Source: Thermovirgaceae bacterium
Lineage (GTDB): Bacteria > Synergistota > Synergistia > Synergistales > Thermovirgaceae
Direction: 5' to 3'
NCBI GenBank assembly: GCA_040767805.1
Contig: JAXGNU010000017.1
Coordinates: 1-10,314 of the forward strand
DNA: 10,314 nucleotides
The first letter of the stretch is position 1. Every line of letters begins with the position of its first letter. Of the stretch, positions 105 through 10,260 are shown piece after piece. Below the pieces are notes generated by a model. It worked only from the letters and a program-made list of their open reading frames with translations. It searched no databases and was not told the origin of the DNA. Made by a program: the position numbers and the translations under genes.

Positions 105-1589
105 TTAATCCAATCTCCAGTGGTTACCTAGGCTTTCTTTTCTTTTTAAGGCCGCTTCGGCGACTGCTTTCGCCGTCTCGTAAAGTCCCCGCATTTCAAG
201 AGCCAGCAACCTATCGACAGGGGTCTCGATCCGAGTCTTCCGAGCCCTGAAGTCCGAAAGAAATCCCAGGTAGCTCTCCATTTCACTGGTTCTCCTGATG
301 GGGCCCAGGGCTTTCCAGGTTTCCCGCTGCAGTTCTTTCCGCAGCGCCAGGGGACTTTGTCCCACGCTTTGGGATACTTCGTGAAGAAAACCTGGAACAG
401 GTCCGGATCCTGTTCCATTGTATCCCCCGGCCTCTTCGGCGGCGGCCTCCCCGGTACGGAGACCAAAAACGGCAACGCTGCTGAGGGCGTTACCACCCAC
501 CCGACTGGCTCCGTCGATGCCGCCCGTCACCTCACCACAGGCAAACAAACCATCGACAGCTGTACGCCCTCGGCTGTCAATGACGACTCCGCCGCAGAAG
601 TAGTGCTCCAGCGGGGCTACCCTAAGAGGGCGGGCAAAATCCTTGAAGCGCGAGGCGTCCAGTCCCAGGCAGTATCTAACAGCCGGGTCGTCGAAGCTGT
701 TTTCTTCCAGGTCCTCCAGATGAGCATAAACGCCACCTTCCCTGTCCCTTTCGGCCACCAGCCTAGCGCTCCGGTCACGGGCGAAAAGGCCGCCTTCAGC
801 CCCGTTCCGGTAGCCCCATTCGTAGAGGGTTCTTTTCAGGAACTCCACTCCCCGGCAGTCCGTAACCCTGACAAAGTCAACAAGGGAAAGGTCGACTATC
901 CACCGCGGGAAGCCTGGTTCCGCCCAACCCAGAGGATAGAACTGCACGAACTCCATGTCCCGCAGGACCGCCCCTGCTCCCAACGCCAGGGCGTACCCGT
1001 CGCCGGTTATCCTGCCGGGGTTATCGGTATTGCTGAATATCTGTCCACCTCCTCCGGTGGCCAATATCACGGAGCCCGCCCTCAGGAAGCCCTCTTCCCC
1101 GGTCCGCCAATCCTGGACCCTGGCTCCAACCACCCGTCCACTCTTCACGGTAATCTCCGTGACTGAAGTCCAATCCACGAATTCCACCCCGGACCCCTCT
1201 GCGAGCGCGATGAGTTCCGTGGTGAAACCGGCGCCACCCATGACCATGCTGGGGGCCGTGGACAAGACCGAGGCCCCTCCCCTTTCGAACTCGATGGTGA
1301 CCCCCCATCGGACGAGTTCCCTGAGGGTTTTCTCCGCATCTTCGGAGAGGACCTTAACTAGTTTTTCGTCATTTTGGTGATGACCCGTCTCCAGGGTCTT
1401 CCGGTAATGCTCTTCGGGGGAAAAACCACCACAGGCCAATGTGAATATACCCCCGGCATGGGCGGTGCATGTACCAAGGCCCCGCCTTGCCTTTGAGACG
1501 ACCAGAACATCCGCTCCCGACCTCCTCGCCGCGATGGCAGCGACCAGGCCGGCGCCGCCGGACCCGACGACCAGGACACGTTTTTTCAC
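105..1589 (-). CDS. FAD-dependent oxidoreductase, fumarate reductase/succinate dehydrogenase flavoprotein / L-aspartate oxidase family (stand-alone, substrate unknown), 494 aa
   Basis: N-terminal Rossmann motif VLVVGSGGAGLVAA. Family motifs VILATGG, TGDGYALA..AGA.LRDMEFVQFYP, ARD, HYFCGG, GLFACGE, G.SRVGGNAL and C-terminal R.ESLGNH.R.D. GTG start preceded by a strong SD (GGAAGGAGG). No signal peptide and no adjacent Fe-S subunit gene. Confidence 0.88.
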   Translation of the reverse strand: MKKRVLVVGSGGAGLVAAIAARRSGADVLVVSKARRGLGTCTAHAGGIFTLACGGFSPEEHYRKTLETGHHQNDEKLVKVLSEDAEKTLRELVRWGVTIEFERGGASVLSTAPSMVMGGAGFTTELIALAEGSGVEFVDWTSVTEITVKSGRVVGARVQDWRTGEEGFLRAGSVILATGGGGQIFSNTDNPGRITGDGYALALGAGAVLRDMEFVQFYPLGWAEPGFPRWIVDLSLVDFVRVTDCRGVEFLKRTLYEWGYRNGAEGGLFARDRSARLVAERDREGGVYAHLEDLEENSFDDPAVRYCLGLDASRFKDFARPLRVAPLEHYFCGGVVIDSRGRTAVDGLFACGEVTGGIDGASRVGGNALSSVAVFGLRTGEAAAEEAGGYNGTGSGPVPGFLHEVSQSVGQSPLALRKELQRETWKALGPIRRTSEMESYLGFLSDFRARKTRIETPVDRLLALEMRGLYETAKAVAEAALKRKESLGNHWRLD

Positions 1590-1721: not shown

Positions 1722-3002
1722 CTATCTCAACAACCGGACCAGCCCCATGGAAAGGGAGGGGACGTAAGTAAAAAGCATCAAGCAGGCGACCATGGCCACA
1801 AAGGAGGGGATGATCTCTCTTGAGATGCTCTCTATGCTCTCCCCCGATATGGCGGACGCGACGAAGAGGTTTATGCCGTAGGGCGGGGAGATGAAGCCGA
1901 TCGCCAGGTTGACCGTAATGATCAGCCCGAAGTGTATCGTGTCGATGCCTATCATGCGGACCACGGGCAAGAGGATGGGCGTCAGAATGATGACCGCCGG
2001 GATGTTGTCCACGAAGCATCCCAGGACCAGCAGGAATACGTTAATGATCAACATCAGCAGGAAGGGACTGTGCACGAAGTTTACCAGCAGGGCCGCTATC
2101 TTCGCGGGTATCTGCGCCATCGCCAGGTAGCTCGCGAAGGCCATGGAAAGCCCTATCAGGAAGGACGTAGCGCCGTTTATCAGCCCCGTGGATTTCAGGC
2201 AGTCGTAGATGGCCTTCATATCGAGTTCCCGGTAAACGAACTTGCCTATGATGACGGAATAGACGACCGCTACGACCGCGGCTTCTGTGGGAGTGAAAAC
2301 ACCCCCGTAAATCCCCCCCAGTATTATTACCGGGACGAGCAGGGCCCAGATGGCCTCCTTAAAGGCCTTCGATACTTCTGAGAACTTGGGGCGCTCGGTC
2401 ATGGAAATGTAATTGCGTTTCCTGGCGGTGAAATAACATACCGACATCAAGGCGAAGCCGATTATTATGCCGGGTATTATGCCGGCAATGAACATATCAC
2501 CAATGGAACACTGGGCGACGACGCCGTAGATGACAAAGGGGATGCTGGGGGGAATGATGACGCCTATCGTACCCGCGGCGGCAGTGATGGCCGCGGCGAA
2601 ACCAGCGTCATATTTTCTCTCCTTCATCGAGGGGATCATGAAGGAGCCGATGGCCGACACGGTCGCGGGTCCCGATCCGGAGATCGCGGCGAAGAACATG
2701 CAGGCAAGCACGGTCACCATGGCCAGGCCGCCTACGATGAACCCGACAAGGCTTTCCGCCAACGCTACCAGGCGGCGTGAAATACCGCCGGTGCACATCA
2801 AGGCCCCGGCGAGGATAAAGAACGGTATCGCCAGCAGCGGGAATGAGTCCAGGCCCGTAACGGCCTTTTGAGCGATCATCAGCATGGAGATATCGGAAGT
2901 GAGCATCATCGCGATGCACGTCGATAACCCCAGGGTGATGCCTATGGGGATGCTCACTATTATCGTGACGATCAGGATGGAAAAGAGAATTATCGCTTCC
3001 AT
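1722..3002 (-). CDS. dctM: TRAP transporter large permease (DctM), 426 aa
   Basis: Polytopic hydrophobic protein with DctM motifs SFPLLAIPFFILAG, FFAAISGS, GVIIPPSIPFVIYG, GGIYGGVFTPTEAA and GFISPPYGINLFV. Starts 8 nt after the dctQ stop. Confidence 0.95.
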   Translation of the reverse strand: MEAIILFSILIVTIIVSIPIGITLGLSTCIAMMLTSDISMLMIAQKAVTGLDSFPLLAIPFFILAGALMCTGGISRRLVALAESLVGFIVGGLAMVTVLACMFFAAISGSGPATVSAIGSFMIPSMKERKYDAGFAAAITAAAGTIGVIIPPSIPFVIYGVVAQCSIGDMFIAGIIPGIIIGFALMSVCYFTARKRNYISMTERPKFSEVSKAFKEAIWALLVPVIILGGIYGGVFTPTEAAVVAVVYSVIIGKFVYRELDMKAIYDCLKSTGLINGATSFLIGLSMAFASYLAMAQIPAKIAALLVNFVHSPFLLMLIINVFLLVLGCFVDNIPAVIILTPILLPVVRMIGIDTIHFGLIITVNLAIGFISPPYGINLFVASAISGESIESISREIIPSFVAMVACLMLFTYVPSLSMGLVRLLR

Positions 3003-3010
3003 GGCGCCCT

Positions 3011-3520
3011 CTATTCCGGCATGTCCACGGCGGGGCTGGCCTGCTTGGGCAGCCCGCGTTTATAGAGGTCGTACATTTCGACGATCAACCGAAGGCACAT
3101 CAAGGTGCTCGCCACCGGTACGGAGGCGTAGGGCCACGTCATGGGCATACTCATCGCCGTCGATATCTGGCCCGTTCCCTGGAGGAAAATGAGTAGTTTC
3201 GTCCCTTGCCAAGCAAGGAAAAAGCAGAATGAAAACCAGGCCAGCAAGATAATATATTCAAAAAAAACCCGTGTTTTCCCCTTTATCATGTTTACGAACA
3301 TCTCGACCCTGAAATGGCTCCTTTCCCTCACGGCATAACTGGCACCCATCCAGGAAAGCCAGAGGAAGATGAAACGGGCCAACTCTTCGCTCCAGGAGAG
3401 CGAACTCGAGAACACGTATCTCATCACGACCTGGAAAAAGACCAATATGGTCATTATCGCCATGATCCAGACACAGAAGTATTCCTCGAAATTATGAAGA
3501 AATTTTCTTACCGTCATCAT
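3011..3520 (-). CDS. dctQ: TRAP transporter small permease (DctQ), about 169 aa
   Basis: Four hydrophobic segments, motifs QVVMRY...WSEELAR and H.RV. SD GAAAGGGG lies before the tandem ATG-ATG. The gene sits between dctP and dctM. Confidence 0.93.
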   Translation of the reverse strand: MMTVRKFLHNFEEYFCVWIMAIMTILVFFQVVMRYVFSSSLSWSEELARFIFLWLSWMGASYAVRERSHFRVEMFVNMIKGKTRVFFEYIILLAWFSFCFFLAWQGTKLLIFLQGTGQISTAMSMPMTWPYASVPVASTLMCLRLIVEMYDLYKRGLPKQASPAVDMPE

Positions 3521-3544: not shown

Positions 3545-3572
3545 CCGCTCCCGCCCGGCCGGGCGGGAGCGG
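3545..3572 (-). terminator. Perfect 28-bp palindrome between dctP and dctQ (intercistronic stem-loop or leaky terminator)
   Basis: CCGCTCCCGCCCGGCCGGGCGGGAGCGG is its own reverse complement (12-bp stem with a GGCC loop as RNA). On the minus strand it is followed by CTTTTT. Confidence 0.7.
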
Positions 3573-3589: not shown

Positions 3590-4582
3590 TTATTTCCGTA
3601 CTTGCTTCAGTATTTCCATAACCTCCTCGCCGAAATCCTTTTCGAACATGGGATAGATCTTCTCGGCGGCATCCACAAAGGGTTGTTTCTCCTCGGGCGT
3701 AAGGGAGTTGGCGGTCATTCCAGCCTTGAGCACTTCATCCTTGAAAGCCGCCTCTTCCTCATCCATGAACTCGCGCTGTTTCAACGTGGCTTCCCGGGCC
3801 GACTTGACCACCAGCTCGTTGAGATCGGCGGGAAGGTTGTCCATGAACTTCTTGTTAGCTATCAGGACCTCGAAGGAAAATACGTGGCCCGTTTCGGAAA
3901 CATACTTCTGGACTTCGTAAAACTTGCCATCGACGATCATGGCATAGGGGTTCTCCTGGGCGTCGACGGTACCCTGCTGCAGGGCGGTGTAGAGTTCCCC
4001 CCAGCTCATGGGCGTGGGGTTGGCGCCGACGGCCTTGAAGAACGCGAGGTGTATCGGGTTTTCCATGGTGCGGATCTTTATCCCCTTCAGATCCGCCGGG
4101 GTCCTGACGGGTCCCCTGTTGTTAGTCACGTGGCGGAATCCGTTCTCCTGGAAACCCAGGATCAGCATGCCCTTAGCCGCCAGGTAGGAATTGAGTTTTT
4201 CCCCAAGAATGCCGTCGGCTGCCTCAAAGGCCGCCTGTTTCGTCGTGAAAAGATAGGGCAATTCCAGTACCTGGACCCTCTTGTCGAATCCCGCGAGCGG
4301 AGCGGAGGCGGGGATAGCCATCTGGATCGTCCCCATCTGCACACCTTCCGAGATCTCGCGGTCACCACCAAGCTGGGCGTTGGGGTAGAGTTCGACCTTG
4401 ATCCTACCCTGGGAGCCTTCCTCGATGGGCTTCACAAAGTACTCCTTCATGGCCCTCATTGTCGGGTGCGAATCGGAGCCGATGTAGGCAACCTTGATCG
4501 TATATTCCGGGGCTGCGAGGGCTGCTCCTGCCATTACCGCGACCACCGCCATCACCGTAAAGACCGCAAGAAGCTTTTTCAC
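3590..4582 (-). CDS. dctP: TRAP transporter solute-binding protein (DctP family), 330 aa precursor
   Basis: Sec signal peptide MKKLLAVFTVMAVVAVMAGAALA-A. Motifs YPNAQLG, ELPYLF, ENGFRH, DLKGIKIRTMEN (carboxylate-binding Arg, R171), PTPMSWGELYTALQQGTVDAQENP and YEVQKY. GTG start with SD AAAGGGGG. Confidence 0.95.
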   Translation of the reverse strand: MKKLLAVFTVMAVVAVMAGAALAAPEYTIKVAYIGSDSHPTMRAMKEYFVKPIEEGSQGRIKVELYPNAQLGGDREISEGVQMGTIQMAIPASAPLAGFDKRVQVLELPYLFTTKQAAFEAADGILGEKLNSYLAAKGMLILGFQENGFRHVTNNRGPVRTPADLKGIKIRTMENPIHLAFFKAVGANPTPMSWGELYTALQQGTVDAQENPYAMIVDGKFYEVQKYVSETGHVFSFEVLIANKKFMDNLPADLNELVVKSAREATLKQREFMDEEEAAFKDEVLKAGMTANSLTPEEKQPFVDAAEKIYPMFEKDFGEEVMEILKQVRK

Positions 4583-4651
4583 CGTTCTTTCCCCCTTTTT
4601 TAGTACCTTTTTTTATAGAAACGCCCTTGGGGCGTCGCTACCAAAGGGCCG

Positions 4652-5077
4652 CTACGCGGCTTTCTTCCTGACCCTGACTTCTCCCTTTTCGGCATCGACC
4701 TCTACATGGTCCCCGTCCTCTATCACTTCATAGGGGTCGGCCTCCATCCGGTCCACCATGGTGCATTCGACCATGACGGCGGCCGAAACGATGACCGGCT
4801 CCGTCTCCACCAGTATAATGGCCGCCGGCAGGTTGTGCTTCACCCAAAGCTGGTAGAAACCGTCCACCTGAACCACCGAGCTGCCCTTGCCGGATTTAAG
4901 CACCAGTATCTTGTTCGCGATGCTCTTGCCGTGGATGGCGTGGTTCCTCTCGATCACTTCACCCGTCTCGGGGTCGGTAAGGTAAAAGCACATGGCGTCC
5001 CTGGAAACGACCGCCTCTCCCTCGGCGCATCCCTTGACTATCTTGCGGCACTTATAGACTTTTACATCCTGAGACAT
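4652..5077 (-). CDS. Aconitase X swivel (small) subunit, DUF126 family, 141 aa
   Basis: Motifs G.AEGEAVVS, DPETG.VI...H...GKSI..KILV, GKGSS (putative catalytic Ser, S66), PAAII, EP....AA and I.DGD.V.VD...G.V. I moved the start from the ORF-track position 5170 to the ATG at 5077 (MSQDVKVYKC), which has SD GGGAGG and overlaps the upstream stop as TGATG. Confidence 0.88.
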   Translation of the reverse strand: MSQDVKVYKCRKIVKGCAEGEAVVSRDAMCFYLTDPETGEVIERNHAIHGKSIANKILVLKSGKGSSVVQVDGFYQLWVKHNLPAAIILVETEPVIVSAAVMVECTMVDRMEADPYEVIEDGDHVEVDAEKGEVRVRKKAA

Positions 5078-6294
5078 CAGTCTATCCTCCCTTTTATCGC
5101 TGCCTCGACGCATTCCGAAAGCCTTCGGATGGCGAAAGGCTGCCCACGGCGTTCCCTGTAGTACGCGCACTTCGGGGAGTCCGTCAGGCCAAGGTGCCCT
5201 TCAAAGGACTTCCAGCAGGGCTCATCGATGCAGGTGTCCCCCACCATTCGAACCCCGAGGAGCTCCAGTTTCTGGCGAAGGTGCGAGCGTTCGGCCAGCT
5301 CGACGGCGCCCGCTTCCGCAAGGATCCAGAAAGCTGTGTTATGGCTGACCTTCCTCCCGGCGAAGAGCCTATCGATCTCCAGGATCTGGTCGTAGGTGTA
5401 GTGGGGGCATCCCAGCATGACCAGATTGATATCGCCCGTAGCGGGGGTAAGCTTGGCTTCCCGGTCTTTCAGGTCCTTATCGGTGATGACGGCCGCGGCG
5501 GACGGCACCTTCCCGCCGCCGAAGGCTGCCTCTATCGTGGGCGCTTCCGGGGTAACGCCGACCATGTGATACATGGCGACTGCGCCGCTCGTAGCGGCCT
5601 CGGCCCCGAAGTAGAGGTAGTCTTCCGGCCCGGGGTTGACCTTGTGCTTGAAGCGAAGGACCGGGTTATGATAGCCCGCCAGTTCCCCCACGACGTGCCC
5701 AAGGATCCCCCAATCGTAGCAGTCCTTTAAATCGGCCTCGACCTCGACCAGGAGATGGCCGTGCCTGTTCTCATCGATGTGAAAACCGTAATAGGGTGTT
5801 TTGCCTATCACCGCCGCGGCCAGGGCGCTTATGGACGACTCCCGGTTGGAGCGGGCGCCGAGAGCTCCGTTGACATAGGGCGTAGCGCTGGATTCTGAAT
5901 AGGCGATGTGTTCGCCGAAAAAGGGTACGCCCGTGCTCAGTCCGGGGGCGCAGTGGTAGGTGAGTTTTGCTCCTATTTTGCGGTAGGCCTCACCGGTACG
6001 GTTAGCCAGGTCTAGTTCTTCCTTGGTGACGTCGAAGAATTTCGTGAGGTAGCAGGTGTCCCAGTAGGGGTTCGTCGTCGGCGTAATGGCGCAGGTCGCG
6101 CCGCCGTTAACCAGGAGTTCGCACCAGTAGGTGTCTCCTTCCTGCCCGCTCAGCGCTACGTGAGCGCGCTTTACGGGTATCAACTTTTCCGCGTCGAAGG
6201 TGAGCCCGAGGGCGTAGAGCATTTCCATCGCCTTCTGCTTTCCCGGCCCTTCGGACCCGTCCAGTATCCGCTTCTCTTCGTCTGTGAGAAACAT
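5077..6294 (-). CDS. Aconitase X catalytic (large) subunit, DUF521 family, 405 aa
   Basis: N-terminus M.LT.EE..IL.G..G...Q.AM, then A.KLIPV..AH, TTNP, C115 (HCAP), GEHIAYSESSA..YVN..LGARSNRE, SGAVAMYHMVGVTPEA, LGCPH (C296), DTC (C355) and TDSPK. The three Cys are the expected Fe-S ligands. SD AGAAAGG. Confidence 0.9.
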   Translation of the reverse strand: MFLTDEEKRILDGSEGPGKQKAMEMLYALGLTFDAEKLIPVKRAHVALSGQEGDTYWCELLVNGGATCAITPTTNPYWDTCYLTKFFDVTKEELDLANRTGEAYRKIGAKLTYHCAPGLSTGVPFFGEHIAYSESSATPYVNGALGARSNRESSISALAAAVIGKTPYYGFHIDENRHGHLLVEVEADLKDCYDWGILGHVVGELAGYHNPVLRFKHKVNPGPEDYLYFGAEAATSGAVAMYHMVGVTPEAPTIEAAFGGGKVPSAAAVITDKDLKDREAKLTPATGDINLVMLGCPHYTYDQILEIDRLFAGRKVSHNTAFWILAEAGAVELAERSHLRQKLELLGVRMVGDTCIDEPCWKSFEGHLGLTDSPKCAYYRERRGQPFAIRRLSECVEAAIKGRID

Positions 6295-6310
6295 GGTCAG
6301 CCGCCTTTCT

Positions 6311-7603
6311 TTATTGAGATTTGCCTACGACGGGCAGTGAGATCCCACCCATCGGGATAATGCCGATCGTCGCACCGGGGATGAGCTCCAGGGCCTTGTC
6401 CAGGGCCTCCTGGACCGTGGGGAAGGGCGTGTACCCCATGGCGGCGATGTCCTCCTTCGACAGGCCTTCCGTGACGGAAAAGATCCTCGCCTTGTCCCTG
6501 GCGCGGCAGTTGCATATGGCGAGTACCGCCGATACCGTATCGGCTTCCACGTCCTCCGGCGAGGTCGCTCGCAGCCTCCGTAGCGCTTCGTCCAGGGAGA
6601 GGGAGAGCCATTCCCTGAAGAGGGGGTGGTTATGGGCTAGGCCCTCTCCACAGGGGGCCGCAAAAATGATGATGCCCCCCTTTTTCACGGCGAAATAGGC
6701 GCAGCTGACGCCCTTGGTAGCTTGCCAGTAGTCCATGTCGGAAGGCCACGAACTCACTACAACTATATCCGCGGGTTCGGGCACGGTGATCCTGAAGGAC
6801 TTTTCGGCGAGTTTTATTCCCTCCCTATGGGCCTTTATGAAATCACCGGAGAAAAGGCCGGCGATCTCATCCCGGTAGTTCTTGACTATATTGACAATGA
6901 ACGCCAGCCCGGCGATCCTCGCCACTTCCTCTATTCCCTCGCGGCAGGGGTTGCCGTCGGCCACCCCCAGGGGTATATCGGGACAAAAACCGGCGGCAGC
7001 GTGGGTGGCGGAAGTGGTGACAAAGTCGCAGACCCCGGGCTGCAGGATCTTGGCTCCCCCGGCGTAACCGGCGTCACAATGGGGCACGATGTTCCCTATG
7101 CCGACGAGGAGATCCGAGGCCAGGGCGTAGCGGTTGACGTGGGCGGGTATCTCGTAATCCCCGGCCATGACCGTTCCGATATCGACCATATCCTCCCTGG
7201 CCGTCGCGTCGTGCTGCACGACCTTGAAGCGCCTGACCATCTCGGGGCCAAGTTTTTCAAGGATCTCCCTTTCGGTCATGAGCCTGTGGGTCCCTGGGGC
7301 GGTGAGGAAACTCATCGCGCCGTCGGGTACTCCGTTTTCGTTGAGGTACCCCGTGATCACGGGCATTATGATGTCCAGGGGCGTGCTACGGGTGCTGTCC
7401 TCCACGAGGAAGACGATGTTCTTCTTCCCGCGGGCGAGTTCTTTGAGGGGCGGGGTGCCAAGGGGCGATTCAAGGGAGGCGACGAGGGCCTTTTCGAAGT
7501 GTTCCAGCGGGGGGATGTCGGACATCTCACCCTCGAAGATCACGGACCTCTCGGGGGCCTCGAAGCTGACTCTCCTGTTTCCGTAGGGGATTTCATATCT
7601 CAT
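6311..7603 (-). CDS. larA: LarA-family nickel-pincer-nucleotide-dependent 2-hydroxy-acid racemase/epimerase (substrate probably not lactate), 430 aa
   Basis: Motifs I.YG at the N-terminus, L..PLG.P.L, DSTR (D69, R72), APGTHR (H106), PH..AGYAGGAK..QPG (H175, K185), H201, NP.R, D..WQATK (Q294, K297) and VK.GG.II..A.C.EG. I moved the start from 7684 to the ATG at 7603 (MRYEIPYG), which matches the family N-terminus. The symbol denotes the family only. Confidence 0.9.
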   Translation of the reverse strand: MRYEIPYGNRRVSFEAPERSVIFEGEMSDIPPLEHFEKALVASLESPLGTPPLKELARGKKNIVFLVEDSTRSTPLDIIMPVITGYLNENGVPDGAMSFLTAPGTHRLMTEREILEKLGPEMVRRFKVVQHDATAREDMVDIGTVMAGDYEIPAHVNRYALASDLLVGIGNIVPHCDAGYAGGAKILQPGVCDFVTTSATHAAAGFCPDIPLGVADGNPCREGIEEVARIAGLAFIVNIVKNYRDEIAGLFSGDFIKAHREGIKLAEKSFRITVPEPADIVVVSSWPSDMDYWQATKGVSCAYFAVKKGGIIIFAAPCGEGLAHNHPLFREWLSLSLDEALRRLRATSPEDVEADTVSAVLAICNCRARDKARIFSVTEGLSKEDIAAMGYTPFPTVQEALDKALELIPGATIGIIPMGGISLPVVGKSQ

Positions 7604-7650
7604 CAGGTAACACCATTCCCTAATAGGATCAGTACGTTCAAGACGTGTGG

Positions 7651-7660
7651 CCTGTATACT
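7651..7660. promoter_or_regulatory. Putative GntR operator in the larA leader (CCTGTATACT)
   Basis: 7/8 match to the palindrome TGTATACA. The 9-mer CCTGTATAC is identical to the copy at 7861-7869. Confidence 0.5.
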
Positions 7661-7739
7661 GCTTCCGTTGAAACTCCTGACCATGCAACCTTGAACCGGT
7701 GGCCGTCAATATCGCATGAAAGTCGCTTTCCTGTTTCGG

Positions 7740-7767
7740 ATAATAACACCTGGGATTATTATGTCAA
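7740..7767 (-). promoter_or_regulatory. Sigma70-type promoter for the larA-acnX-dctPQM operon
   Basis: Minus strand: TTGACA (7767-7762), a 16-nt spacer, then TATTAT (7745-7740) with an extended -10 TG (TGtTATTAT). Predicted start site near 7733. Confidence 0.7.
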
Positions 7768-7830
7768 TGAAGGCAAGAGATATCAAGATGATCCAAGGGA
7801 GCGGTTTTAATTTAAATTGAATGGGCTCTA

Positions 7831-7859
7831 TGGACAAATTTGCCTTTTTAATGTATATT
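7831..7859 (+). promoter_or_regulatory. Sigma70-type promoter for gntR-ilvD
   Basis: TGGACA (7831-7836), a 17-nt spacer, then TATATT (7854-7859). An AT-rich tract lies upstream at about 7805-7820. Confidence 0.6.
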
Positions 7860-7870
7860 CCCTGTATACA
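7852..7870. promoter_or_regulatory. Putative tandem GntR operator overlapping the -10 and start site of gntR
   Basis: Perfect palindrome TGTATACA (7863-7870) plus a degenerate copy TGTATATT (7852-7859) 11 bp upstream. This matches the TGTATACA core known for GntR/FCD regulators such as Bacillus subtilis GntR. Confidence 0.6.
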
Positions 7871-7898
7871 TCTGGTTCATCCTTTTGGAGGCGGGGCC

Positions 7899-8558
7899 AT
7901 GAAGGGCAACAATAGGGCCAGTTGGGAGAAGGCATACGGGTGGATCCGTGACGCGATCGAATCGGGACAGATAGTGATGGGATCACCCCTGCCGGAAAAC
8001 CAGCTCGCGAAGGAGATAGGCGTGAGCAGGACCCCTATCCGTGAGGCTTTACGCTGCCTTGAGCAGGACGGTTACGTCACGATAATCCCCCAGAAAGGGG
8101 CCTTCGTTTCGCGGATTTCCCTGGAGGACCTGAAGGAAATTTACGATATCAGGAAGCTCCTGGAACCCTTCGCGGCTTTGTCGGCCGTGAACAGGGTCCC
8201 CGAGAAAAAGATCGATGAAATGGAAAAGGACTGGAAGGCCTTGAAAAAAGCCGCTTCCTCGGGGGAAGTAGACCTTTCCAAGGTCTCCGAGATGGATTAC
8301 CGGACGCACATGACGATAACCGGGTATGGGACCAATAAACGCATCGGAACCATCATCGCGACCTACCACGCCCAGATACAGCTTTTCCAGAGACTCTCGG
8401 CCCAGTCGCTCGCCAACATCTTTGAAACCATCGATCAACACCTGGAGATCCTCGAAAAACTGCGCGAAAGGGACGCCGAGGGCCTGTCAAACCTGCTCTA
8501 CGAACATATCGGTAAAAGCGAGAGCAACATTATGAAGGATTACTTTCTCCGGCAATAA
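7899..8558 (+). CDS. GntR-family transcriptional regulator with FCD effector domain, 219 aa
   Basis: Winged HTH motif G..LPE.QLA..IGVSRTPIREAL..LEQDG.V...P.KGAFV. FCD features EIY.IR.LLE, D...H, QH..I and EH. I moved the start from 7821 to the ATG at 7899, which follows SD GGAGG (7887-7891). Confidence 0.93.
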   Translation: MKGNNRASWEKAYGWIRDAIESGQIVMGSPLPENQLAKEIGVSRTPIREALRCLEQDGYVTIIPQKGAFVSRISLEDLKEIYDIRKLLEPFAALSAVNRVPEKKIDEMEKDWKALKKAASSGEVDLSKVSEMDYRTHMTITGYGTNKRIGTIIATYHAQIQLFQRLSAQSLANIFETIDQHLEILEKLRERDAEGLSNLLYEHIGKSESNIMKDYFLRQ

Positions 8559-8580: not shown

Positions 8581-10260
8581 ATGAAGTACAGGAGTTCCGA
8601 GATCCTTTCAGAACTTAAGTTCACCGAGAACAGGGCGTTGTATAAATCCATGGGTTTTTCGAACCGCGATCTTGATGGGCCCCTCATCGGCATAGCCAAC
8701 TCCTGGAACGAACTAGTGCCGGGACACTACAACCTCAGGAACGTGGCCGACTTCGTGAAAAAGGGGATACTCAGGGCGGGGGGCGCCTCCGTAGAATTCG
8801 GAGTCATCGGAGCCTGCGACGCCCAGGCCTGCGGACACATAGGCATGAAGTACATCCTGCCGACGAGGGACCTCATCGCCTTCGACATCGAGTCGATGGC
8901 CGAAGCCCACAGGCTTGACGGTATCGTCCTGTTGGGTTCCTGCGACAAGATCGTGCCGGGGATGCTCATGGCGGCGGCCAGGCTCGACCTGCCGGCGATA
9001 CTGCTCGTGGGCGGCCCCATGGCCGGCGGCATCGAATTCGACGGGCGAAAGAGCGACTCCACGTCTGTATCCGAGGCCGTGGGCATGCTAAGCGCCGGCC
9101 TGATAAGCAAAGAGGAGTTTTCCCGATTGGAAGACTATGCCGCCCCCTCCTGCGGGTCATGCTCCTACTACGGCACGGCGAATTCCATGGGATGCGCGGC
9201 CGAAGCCATGGGCCTGTCGCTCACGGGGTCGTCCCTGATCCCCGCGACCTCCTCGGCGAGGATGAGGGCCGCGGAGGCAACGGGCAGAACCATCGTGGAC
9301 CTCGTCAACGGGGACGTCACGGCCCGAAGGATCATCACGAGGGCTTCCCTCGAAAACACCGCCAGGGTAATGGTCGCCACGGGGGGTTCCACCAATACCT
9401 TTATCCATCTTTCCGCGATAGCCAACGAGATAGGGGTGGATGCGGAAACCATGATGGAAATCTACGACAGGGCGAGCGAAGCGGTCCCCTCCGTGGCGAG
9501 GGTCAACCCCTCCTCCGAGTACGACATGGAAGACTTCTACCGCGCCGGGGGCATCCCCCAGGTAATGAAGGAACTGCTTGACGATTTAGACCTCTCCTGC
9601 CTGACCGTGAGCGGCGAGACCCTTGGGGAGAACCTGGAGAAGTGGACTCACCCCTTCGAGGTCGACAGGAGGGTCATCCGCTCAAAGGAAGATCCCTTCA
9701 GCAGTTCGGGAGGGCTCGCGGTCCTCAGGGGCAACCTGGCGCCGGGCACCGGGATAACTAAACCCATTGCCATAGACGCCTCGATGCATTATTTCTCCGG
9801 GCCCGCGAGGGTCTTCGAGTGCGAAGAAGACGCCAACGAAGCCATCCTCTCGGGGAAGATAGCCGAGGGTGACGTGATAGTCATCCGCAACGAGGGGCCT
9901 AAGGGCGGTCCGGGAATGAGGGAAATGTACTTCGCCATGAAGTTGCTTTACGGGCGGGGCCTGGCGAAAAAGACCGCCCTGATAACGGACGGCCGCTTTT
10001 CGGGAACGAACAACGGATGCTTCGTCGGGCACATCTCGCCGGAAGCCGCCGAGGATGGGCCGATAGCCGCCGTGAATGACGGGGACAGGATAACCATAGA
10101 TATCAAGAACAAGAGGCTTGACGTGGACTTGACGCCCGAGGAGATCGCCTACCGCTTGAAGCAGCGGGTAAGGCCGCCGAAGAAGGAATATAAGGGCATC
10201 CTCGGCCTTTACGCGAAGCTGGCGACATCGGCCGCCGAAGGCGGCATGATCAGGATATAA
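8581..10260 (+). CDS. ilvD: IlvD/Edd-family Fe-S dehydratase (dihydroxy-acid dehydratase-like), 559 aa
   Basis: Motifs P.IGIANSW.E.VPGH, CD....GH.GM.Y.L..RD.IA, CDKIVPG (C121, K123), GSC....TANSM (C194), GGSTN, L.GNLAP, EGPKGGPGMREM and ITDGRFSG...G..VGHISPEA (S474). Starts 22 nt after the gntR stop. The symbol denotes the family; the physiological substrate is uncertain. Confidence 0.92.
   Translation: MKYRSSEILSELKFTENRALYKSMGFSNRDLDGPLIGIANSWNELVPGHYNLRNVADFVKKGILRAGGASVEFGVIGACDAQACGHIGMKYILPTRDLIAFDIESMAEAHRLDGIVLLGSCDKIVPGMLMAAARLDLPAILLVGGPMAGGIEFDGRKSDSTSVSEAVGMLSAGLISKEEFSRLEDYAAPSCGSCSYYGTANSMGCAAEAMGLSLTGSSLIPATSSARMRAAEATGRTIVDLVNGDVTARRIITRASLENTARVMVATGGSTNTFIHLSAIANEIGVDAETMMEIYDRASEAVPSVARVNPSSEYDMEDFYRAGGIPQVMKELLDDLDLSCLTVSGETLGENLEKWTHPFEVDRRVIRSKEDPFSSSGGLAVLRGNLAPGTGITKPIAIDASMHYFSGPARVFECEEDANEAILSGKIAEGDVIVIRNEGPKGGPGMREMYFAMKLLYGRGLAKKTALITDGRFSGTNNGCFVGHISPEAAEDGPIAAVNDGDRITIDIKNKRLDVDLTPEEIAYRLKQRVRPPKKEYKGILGLYAKLATSAAEGGMIRI

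Follow-up and report, generated by a model that had tools for sequence, protein, structure and literature searches.

A Synergistota aconitase X encoded with a LarA-family racemase and a TRAP transporter, and its possible link to histidine utilisation

Which hydroxy acid is handled by a two-subunit aconitase X (AcnX) whose genes stand beside those of a LarA-family racemase and a tripartite ATP-independent periplasmic (TRAP) transporter? The question is raised by a contig of 10,314 bases (C17, JAXGNU010000017.1), hereafter the window, which was analysed at its full length and belongs to a Thermovirgaceae genome of 1.65 Mb in 29 contigs, 80.6% complete. To our knowledge two activities have so far been recognised for AcnX, the dehydration of cis-3-hydroxyproline and that of mevalonate-5-phosphate. 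A first-pass annotation of this DNA had proposed a third activity, acting on a hydroxy acid whose stereochemistry is set by LarA, with maleate/D-malate (de)hydration coupled to malate racemisation as one option. Our comparisons support a third activity and its coupling to LarA and oppose the malate option; for the substrate, a tentative case can be made for an imidazole-bearing hydroxy acid.

The aconitase X and its characterised relatives

Both subunits are encoded on the minus strand. The large one (5077..6294, 405 aa, stop at 5077-5079) matches the Pfam AcnX profile over positions 1-400 of 400 (PF04412, E 5.2e-116, 388.1 bits against a cut-off of 31.5), and the small one matches AcnX_swivel (PF01989, E 1.9e-23, 82.6 bits against a cut-off of 27). 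The small-subunit open reading frame was called at 4652-5170, but M32 is a likelier start, since its ATG (5077-5075) overlaps the large-subunit TGA by one base and is preceded by GGGAGG 8 nt upstream. The small subunit therefore most likely begins at M32 and has 141 aa (4652..5077), and it is numbered from there throughout.

Residue roles were taken from Watanabe 2021 (PMC8184944) and alignments to the solved AcnX were made by phmmer. The residues singled out in the first-pass annotation, C115, C296, C355, E134 and K375 of the large subunit and S66 of the small one, are all where it had placed them, and its M32-based numbering is right. The three cysteines align with Cys110, Cys283 and Cys342 of the Thermococcus kodakarensis large subunit (L) and are invariant in 13 of 13 members of the window's clade, here called AcnX1. 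The ESS motif (134-136) aligns with Glu129-Ser130-Ser131, while K375, Y379 and N75 correspond to Lys361, Tyr365 and Asn79. In the small subunit (S), GKGS occupies 63-66, and S66-S67-V68 fall on Ser62-Thr63-Val64(S), of which Ser62 is catalytic. The pair is thus an intact two-subunit AcnX, predicted to form an iron-sulfur hydro-lyase, which, with all cluster and catalytic residues retained, looks active, as had been supposed. The divergent segments that had been pointed out, HCAPG at 114, TDSPK at 371 (giving K375) and CFYLTDP at 30 of the small subunit, are indeed present, but not all of them are diagnostic: H114 is restricted to near relatives (at least 80% identity), remoter clade members carrying Cys, while TDSPK and CFYL also occur in the sister paralogue AcnX2, and Asp at the TDS position is found in many other AcnX lineages. 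The clade-wide change in the first Cys-ligand motif is at position 118, where Tyr gives way to Gly or Glu.

The best solved relative is Type-IIb, the mevalonate-5-phosphate dehydratase of T. kodakarensis and Aeropyrum pernix (PDB 7CNR, 7CNS), with E 5.8e-56 for the large subunit (7cnr_A) and 4.7e-20 for the small one (7cnr_B). Both are two-subunit enzymes, and they share the three Cys ligands, Glu-Ser-Ser, the Lys, the Tyr, the Asn79 equivalent and the small-subunit Ser base. However, the phosphate loop of Type-IIb (Gly48-Val49-Ser50...Asn53) is shortened in the window's enzyme, where it reads LSGQE, the Tyr of CTPY after the first Cys ligand is Gly, and Leu27(S) is Tyr (Y32); the window's enzyme is moreover bacterial, has no mevalonate context and falls in another clade. 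The cis-3-hydroxyproline-type AcnX of Agrobacterium has the same fold and the same Ser/Glu/Lys/Tyr catalytic core (E 6.4e-37), but it consists of one fused polypeptide and holds a [2Fe-2S] cluster. Its Asp203, which holds the ring nitrogen, faces a gap in the window's enzyme (HIDGCI against HV--AL), Thr72 is replaced by Val68 and Trp35 by Tyr32, and the hydroxyproline landmarks that contact the ring nitrogen and the pyrrolidine ring (Asp203, Thr72, Trp35, Ile206) are not retained as a set. The NCBIfam hydroxyproline-dehydratase model NF051439 gives 203 bits, against a cut-off of 700. Domain and model searches found no proline racemase, pyrroline-carboxylate reductase, amino-acid ABC (ATP-binding cassette) transporter or mevalonate gene in the window, in agreement with the first-pass annotation.

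According to Watanabe 2021 (PMC8184944), the bacterial Type-IIc to IIf show the landmark residues of neither known activity and have yet to be characterised, so that an additional AcnX activity was already expected in print. AcnX1, likewise bacterial and with neither landmark set, very likely belongs among Type-IIc to IIf. The paper describes neither what these subclasses do nor which genes surround them, and AcnX1 adds a gene unit to this picture.

A search of 1.84 billion representative sequences returned 2085 relatives at E <=0.001. Among the matches listed, one 50%-identity cluster representative (P0001, 83% identical) and some short fragments were near the query, and the next full-length matches after P0001 had at most 46% identity. 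A FastTree phylogeny (n=177) was computed from the window's sequence, 41 large subunits of related loci, the second AcnX of the genome and 134 representatives; these were drawn from the 135 of 150 listed matches that measured 370-620 aa, 15 of other lengths being excluded and P0019, which lacks the N-terminal third, being dropped. AcnX1 (35 sequences) was monophyletic with a support of 0.957, and together with its sister groups, AcnX2 among them, it formed a superclade (0.998) apart from the Thermococcus-like P0098 and the 'AHIDG' hydroxyproline-type P0040 group. The clade thus does not cluster with either characterised type, and it is nearly confined to Synergistota, where an AcnX1-type gene (at least 55% identity) is present in 53 of 268 genomes. 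Its separate clade, the deletion of the Asp203 equivalent and the shortened phosphate loop all support, at the sequence level, the proposal that AcnX1 is neither of the two characterised types and has a third activity.

The second AcnX pair of the same genome (contig C2, about 182816-184497, locus L038) is about 30% identical and reads TESHA in place of ESS. Its neighbours are ornithine-cyclodeaminase/mu-crystallin, serine-dehydratase-alpha-like, TRAP and glycine-reductase-type genes and an aldehyde:ferredoxin oxidoreductase.

The conserved unit and its histidine-utilisation neighbours

Related loci were collected by a genome scan (36 loci, all but 3 from Synergistota) and a metagenome scan (78 more). 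An AcnX1-type large subunit (at least 55% identity) was present in 108 loci, which were reduced to 25 clusters by clustering at 90% and requiring at least 3 kb on both flanks. Neighbours were counted by tblastn with a panel of query proteins, and the counts refer to the genes of that panel. TRAP genes accompany AcnX1 in 21 of the 25 clusters, a GntR homologue in 20, a nickel-pincer isomerase of any kind (NCBIfam 'group 22' included) also in 20, and a LarA of the window's type in 16, which bears out the coupling to LarA that had been suggested. The conserved unit is GntR / LarA-AcnXL-AcnXS-DctPQM. Less frequent companions are a second AcnX pair, AcnX2 (43-46% identical, 9/25), IlvD (5/25) and a formate channel (2/25), together with enzymes that would form or interconvert 2-hydroxy acids: D-2-hydroxyacid dehydrogenase (4/25), aminotransferase (3/25), a HisD-type dehydrogenase that passes TIGR00069 (3/25) and an electron-transfer flavoprotein with a GlcD-like oxidase (2/25).

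The group-22 isomerase replaces or joins LarA beside AcnX1 in five loci (L009, L010, L014, L064 and L068). It is also encoded on contig C3 of the window's genome (about 178685-189200, L037), in a cluster of Amidohydro_3, D-2-hydroxyacid dehydrogenase, aminotransferase, 'group 22' isomerase, DctQ and DctM, with DctP further on, which has two DDE transposase genes next to it.

Histidine-utilisation (hut) genes lie within the flanks in 10 of the 25 clusters, with urocanase in 6. They are interleaved with the AcnX1 cluster on one strand, in an order that varies by lineage. In L028, L085 and L088 it is HAL-GntR-AcnX2-HutU-2HacidDH-HutI-FTCD-AcnX1-DctPQM (2HacidDH being the 2-hydroxyacid dehydrogenase), in L030 and L086 it is GntR-AcnX2-LarA-FTHFS-AcnX1-DctPQM-HutU-HutI-FTCD with HAL divergent, and in L078 it is HutI-FTCD-FTHFS-GntR-AcnX2-LarA-AcnX1-DctPQM, L076 being similar with an additional IlvD-family gene. 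Shorter associations are GntR-AcnX1-urocanase in L021, LarA-AcnX1-group-22 isomerase-two transporters-urocanase-FTCD_C in L064, whose AcnX1 is 83% identical to that of the window, and 2HacidDH-AcnX1-SSF symporter-urocanase-AraC-urocanase in L032, from Bacillota. Since a hut operon takes up a few kb of a genome of 2-3 Mb, it is very unlikely that the two would meet by chance in 10 of 25 clusters, by estimate rather than by a computed test.

In Pseudomonas, imidazole-lactate is oxidised to imidazole-pyruvate, which is transaminated to histidine and passed on to histidase. The enzyme types of that route, 2-hydroxyacid dehydrogenase, aminotransferase, HAL and urocanase, recur near AcnX1 in relatives; the Pseudomonas route has no need of a hydro-lyase, whereas no gene of the AcnX1 clusters is better conserved than that of the hydro-lyase. 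As to the urocanases themselves, the matches listed are mostly of a long form (open frames of some 670-700 aa, extended at the N terminus by about 90 aa), for instance at C2 81815-83452 (L041), and the form of 570-600 aa found in the AcnX-containing hut operons is a minority among them. The option of AcnX1 as a urocanase substitute was dropped, since urocanase shares the same operons.

Candidate substrates and reactions

The racemase and the binding protein of the window offer clues to the substrate. The LarA-family protein (6311..7684, minus strand; Lar_N E 1.4e-45 plus LarA_C), predicted to be a 2-hydroxyacid racemase or epimerase dependent on the nickel-pincer nucleotide (NPN), starts at 7684 or at M28 (7603), the latter being closer to its homologues. 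It has the equivalents of His108, His174, the Lys184 tether, Arg75 and His200 of the superfamily, and the motifs with R98, H133, H202, K212 and H228 are kept in 21 clade members, with one substitution at H133 (L012). LarC is found in the genome, which makes NPN synthesis plausible. The best NCBIfam models for the LarA-family protein, which belongs to an unassigned group, are all below their cut-offs. Against the malate racemase Mar2 (6D6Z) it gives E 5.4e-66, and it shares with Mar2 the two catalytic His, the tethering Lys and the cofactor-binding Arg and His.

Urdiain-Arraiza et al. 2024 place LarA specificity at positions 175, 176, 358 and 359, which are F, F, W and E/Q in lactate racemase, while malate racemase (LarAH5/6) has H/Q and Lys where LarA1 has W358 and T359. 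The clade of the window carries the motif PH[C/S]DAG, with [C/S] at position 175 and an Asp (Asp204) that is invariant (21/21) at the F176 position, and the window's protein scores 267 bits on the lactate-racemase model, whose cut-off is 460. Where malate racemases have H/Q-Lys, the residues are small or hydrophobic (V/I and S/A when aligned to Mar2), and the malate-racemase score is 288 bits against a cut-off of 500; no Lys occurs within the second specificity stretch in any of 21 members, a stretch whose alignment shifts by 3 residues between two templates.

The TRAP system is complete, with PF03480, PF04290 and PF06808 all well over their cut-offs. Its solute-binding subunit DctP (3590..4582, minus strand; Pfam DctP E 5.2e-93) has as nearest solved relatives 4P47, 4P9K/4PAK, 4PDH, the isethionate binder 8T9T, 4PDD and 4NQ8 (212-226 bits), against 164 bits for C4-dicarboxylate DctPs. 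In the IseP paper this group is described as open (4P47) or with bound pantoate or erythronate. Sequence similarity places DctP nearest to proteins that bind monocarboxylic hydroxy acids (pantoate, erythronate, isethionate). In the AcnX1 large subunit E52 is invariant, and phmmer aligns it with the phosphate-binding Asn53(L) of the T. kodakarensis enzyme, in the loop through which that enzyme touches the distal part of its substrate. Conserved acidic residues that would face the distal group of the substrate in both AcnX1 and LarA, together with a DctP of the monocarboxylic type, disfavour a dicarboxylate; they would suit a distal group that carries positive charge or donates hydrogen bonds, for instance an imidazole ring or hydroxyls.

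We consider it possible, if short of probable, that AcnX1 removes water from an imported hydroxy acid with an imidazole group, of the imidazole-lactate family, and so would feed urocanate or imidazole-pyruvate into histidine utilisation; the choice of substrate comes from the gene neighbourhood alone. The TRAP system would import a monocarboxylic hydroxy acid, and LarA would invert its C2 hydroxyl, opening both stereoisomers to use. AcnX1 would then dehydrate it by the mechanism of the family, the Ser66 alkoxide of the small subunit abstracting a proton and the unique iron of the [4Fe-4S] cluster (Cys115/296/355), with Glu134 and Lys375, accepting the hydroxyl, and the product would enter the histidine-utilisation pathway. 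In its simplest form this would convert imidazole-lactate to urocanate, a reading suggested by the operons that have AcnX1 and urocanase but neither histidase nor aminotransferase. That AcnX1 is in this precise sense an iron-sulfur imidazole-lactate dehydratase forming urocanate, and LarA the first imidazole-lactate racemase, we hold to be doubtful. A chemically easier form would start from a 3-hydroxy or 2,3-dihydroxy imidazolyl-propanoate and yield urocanate or imidazole-pyruvate, possibly shared with an IlvD-type enzyme; it would also explain what the IlvD-type dehydratase, AcnX2 and the neighbours of D-2-hydroxyacid dehydrogenase, aminotransferase and HisD type are for, though we do not know hydroxylated imidazolyl-propanoates as common nutrients.

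Several observations weigh against the imidazole-acid proposal. The portions of Watanabe 2021 (PMC8184944) that deal with mechanism describe alpha-deprotonation followed by beta-hydroxyl loss in the characterised AcnX, while the imidazole-lactate route needs loss of an alpha-hydroxyl, with a beta-H that is not activated by the carboxylate, and would be non-canonical for AcnX. The genome of the window has its hut operon (C1) and its long-form urocanase (C2) elsewhere, and in the window's subclade (at least 80% identity) hut genes adjoin AcnX1 only in L064 and, weakly, in L016. Of the 53 genomes with an AcnX1-type gene, 52 also have hutU, compared with 177 among all 268; this profile is compatible with the proposal but weak, since the gene is widespread in the phylum and the genomes, being related, are not independent samples. 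The equivalence of E52 with Asn53(L) rests on a single alignment, MAFFT setting the loop otherwise, so that a one-to-one correspondence is uncertain. In L009 an aspartate aminotransferase of type Ic (580 bits, cut-off 435) adjoins AcnX1 and points to oxaloacetate or aspartate. The GntR-IlvD pair and the HisD-like, short-chain dehydrogenase/reductase (SDR) and sugar-type ABC neighbours would suit a polyhydroxy acid equally well.

If the imidazole-lactate form were true, anaerobes would have a histidase-independent entry into the Hut pathway from a common cross-fed histidine metabolite, and the aconitase superfamily would gain a new chemistry in which the imidazole ring helps an alpha-hydroxyl to leave. 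In the wider imidazole-acid form, an orphan AcnX clade and an orphan LarA group would receive a function, and amino-acid-fermenting anaerobes, including the oral and gut genera Fretibacterium, Cloacibacillus and Pyramidobacter, an added entry to histidine catabolism; relatives in these genera carry genes 80-83% identical to those of the window. New here for one AcnX clade are the gene unit, the taxonomic range (53/268 Synergistota) and hints of expression in sludge and digester communities. Searches covering part of PubMed Central returned no literature joining aconitase X and LarA and, among the titles and abstracts listed, none on a urocanate-forming imidazole-lactate dehydratase and none relevant to TRAP transport of urocanate or imidazole. 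The LarA homologue-group context table of Desguin et al. 2020 has no AcnX COG, and aconitase or dehydratase goes unmentioned in the 2024 paper on LarA homologues.

First among the alternatives is a dehydratase for a 2,3-dihydroxy or polyhydroxy monocarboxylic acid without an imidazole, such as glycerate, erythronate/threonate, 2,3-dihydroxybutyrate or 2,3-dihydroxyisovalerate, in which LarA would epimerise C2 and AcnX1 and/or an IlvD-type enzyme would take off the hydroxyl at C3, leaving a 2-oxo acid. This would be canonical AcnX chemistry (alpha-proton, then beta-hydroxyl), the nearest relatives of DctP include erythronate and pantoate binders, and LarA homologues are reported to epimerise 2,3-dihydroxybutyrates, glycerate and 2,3-dihydroxyisovalerate. 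An IlvD/Edd-family dihydroxy-acid dehydratase gene (8581..10260, plus strand; ILVD_EDD_N and ILV_EDD_C, TIGR00110 635 bits against a cut-off of 618) lies 22 nt behind the co-directional gntR, and the pair is divergent from the operon; the IlvD-family gene is probably in the same regulon as the operon in this lineage. It is one of two in the genome, the other being on contig C5 (54763-56367), and both stand beside GntR/TRAP clusters. No ilvC was found in the genome (80.6% complete), which, with these neighbours, suggests catabolic rather than branched-chain biosynthetic roles for the two. IlvD in 5 and AcnX2 in 9 of the 25 clusters would look as though a second dehydratase were required, and L093 and L103 have HisD-like, SDR, iron-containing alcohol dehydrogenase and sugar-type ABC neighbours. 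Yet a polyhydroxy acid gives no reason why the cluster should so often be interleaved with HAL, urocanase, HutI and FTCD, and no sugar-acid aldolase or kinase is among the scanned neighbours. We rate it as unlikely.

Metabolism of malate, maleate or tartrate, which takes in the maleate/D-malate option of the first-pass annotation, is distinctly improbable. Here LarA would racemise malate or epimerise tartrate, AcnX1 would (de)hydrate to or from fumarate, maleate or oxaloacetate, and the flavoprotein encoded downstream of dctM would reduce fumarate; tartrate can be fermented anaerobically by way of oxaloacetate, malate and fumarate to succinate. The best NCBIfam and PDB relatives of LarA are indeed malate racemases, the flavoprotein does resemble fumarate reductase, and L009 has a D-2-hydroxyacid dehydrogenase beside AcnX1 in addition to its aspartate aminotransferase of type Ic. 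But LarA lacks the H/Q-Lys pair, has Asp at the F176 position and stays at 288 of 500 bits; the acidic E52 would occupy the place of a second carboxylate; DctP reaches 226 bits with monocarboxylate binders and 164 with C4-dicarboxylate DctPs; and the flavoprotein gene is found in 1 of 25 clusters only. The hut neighbours also speak against it, as do the class I fumarase-family gene and the two Lyase_1 genes of this genome, on account of which AcnX1 as a gap-filling fumarase was likewise rejected. A methylaspartate route with AcnX as mesaconase was dropped too: glutamate mutase and methylaspartase were not found in the genome (80.6% complete), and LarA would be unable to act on citramalate, a tertiary alcohol.

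Either known AcnX activity is hardly tenable, for although family and catalytic core are identical in kind, the Asp203 equivalent is deleted, Trp35 is Tyr, the phosphate loop is shortened with Glu for Asn53, NF051439 stops at 203 of 700 bits, the clade is separate, the window holds no hydroxyproline or mevalonate genes, and another AcnX pair, with an ornithine-cyclodeaminase/mu-crystallin neighbour, exists elsewhere in the genome. The remaining likelihood falls to another substrate.

Window layout, RNA libraries and the AcnX2 paralogue

On the minus strand the genes follow one another in the order larA, AcnX large subunit, AcnX small subunit, dctP, dctQ, dctM and flavoprotein, with intergenic gaps of -1 to 69 nt from larA to dctM and of 132 nt from dctM to the flavoprotein gene. 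The two permease genes are dctQ (3011..3520, minus; Pfam DctQ E 3e-37) and dctM (1722..3002, minus; Pfam DctM E 6.1e-117, TIGR00786 437 bits against a cut-off of 268). The gap between dctP and dctQ contains a strong terminator-like hairpin, rich in GC and with a T run after it (3545..3572, minus; 12-pair stem with 11 GC pairs), possibly an attenuator that would yield an excess of binding protein. The GntR/FCD-family regulator (7821..8558, plus; FCD E 7.3e-23, GntR E 2.5e-18) is divergent from larA, and two overlapping sigma-70-like promoter matches, TTGACA-16-TATTAT (11/12) and TTGATA-17-CATAAT (10/12), lie upstream of larA in the intergenic region (7740..7786, minus).

The flavoprotein, which binds flavin adenine dinucleotide (FAD), is of the fumarate reductase / L-aspartate oxidase family (105..1589, minus; FAD_binding_2 E 7.8e-49), resembles TfrA, NadB and FrdA and is below the cut-off of all NCBIfam models. 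Its gene adjoins the conserved unit but is probably not part of it. In a twin locus that is 98% identical (L001), an isochorismatase-family gene lies 3' of it, which makes an NAD-related role as likely as a link to AcnX. A urocanate reductase was considered but not adopted, the best solved relatives being SdhA/FrdA and L-aspartate oxidase and the gene occurring in the closest relatives only; among the 46 sequences listed for this protein at E <=1e-15, none is named urocanate reductase.

Six metatranscriptomic runs contain 66-97% of the sampled words of 3590-7684, and in four of them contigs of at least 95% identity (most at least 99%) span all or nearly all of the window; the four share year and habitat and may stem from one campaign. 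A single contig of 2492 nt covers 4268-6759, from dctP into larA. Summed contig depth dips over the divergent intergenic region and peaks over dctP, and dctP exceeds dctQM several-fold in 4 of 4 runs, a weak hint, as contig depth cannot rank genes. Contigs of two runs end with Illumina adapter at 7680 and 7705, near the predicted larA promoter; these ends, close to the annotated larA ATG at 7684, hint weakly at a transcript 5' end and would favour the M28 start. The RNA contigs are consistent with expression of the operon but do not prove its structure, for RNA libraries may contain DNA, and a contig across genes is no proof of a single transcript.

A last observation concerns AcnX2, in relatives only, the window itself having no such TGA. 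In these loci AcnX2 can carry TGA in frame at residue 353, which aligns with the third Cys ligand of the cluster (C355 in the window). Of the 16 loci checked, 10 have TGA (L024 5088-6296, L025 6961-8169, L027 7023-8237, L030 5257-6471, and L057, L074, L080, L081, L086 and L120) and the other 6 have TGC. This looks like a Sec/Cys pair at a position that binds the iron-sulfur cluster, and thus a candidate selenocysteine (Sec). A GC-rich hairpin, GCCGCC-TTGTT-GGTGGC, begins about 11 nt 3' of the TGA, and seven AcnX2-type matches of the search across the phylum likewise show '1 TGA'.

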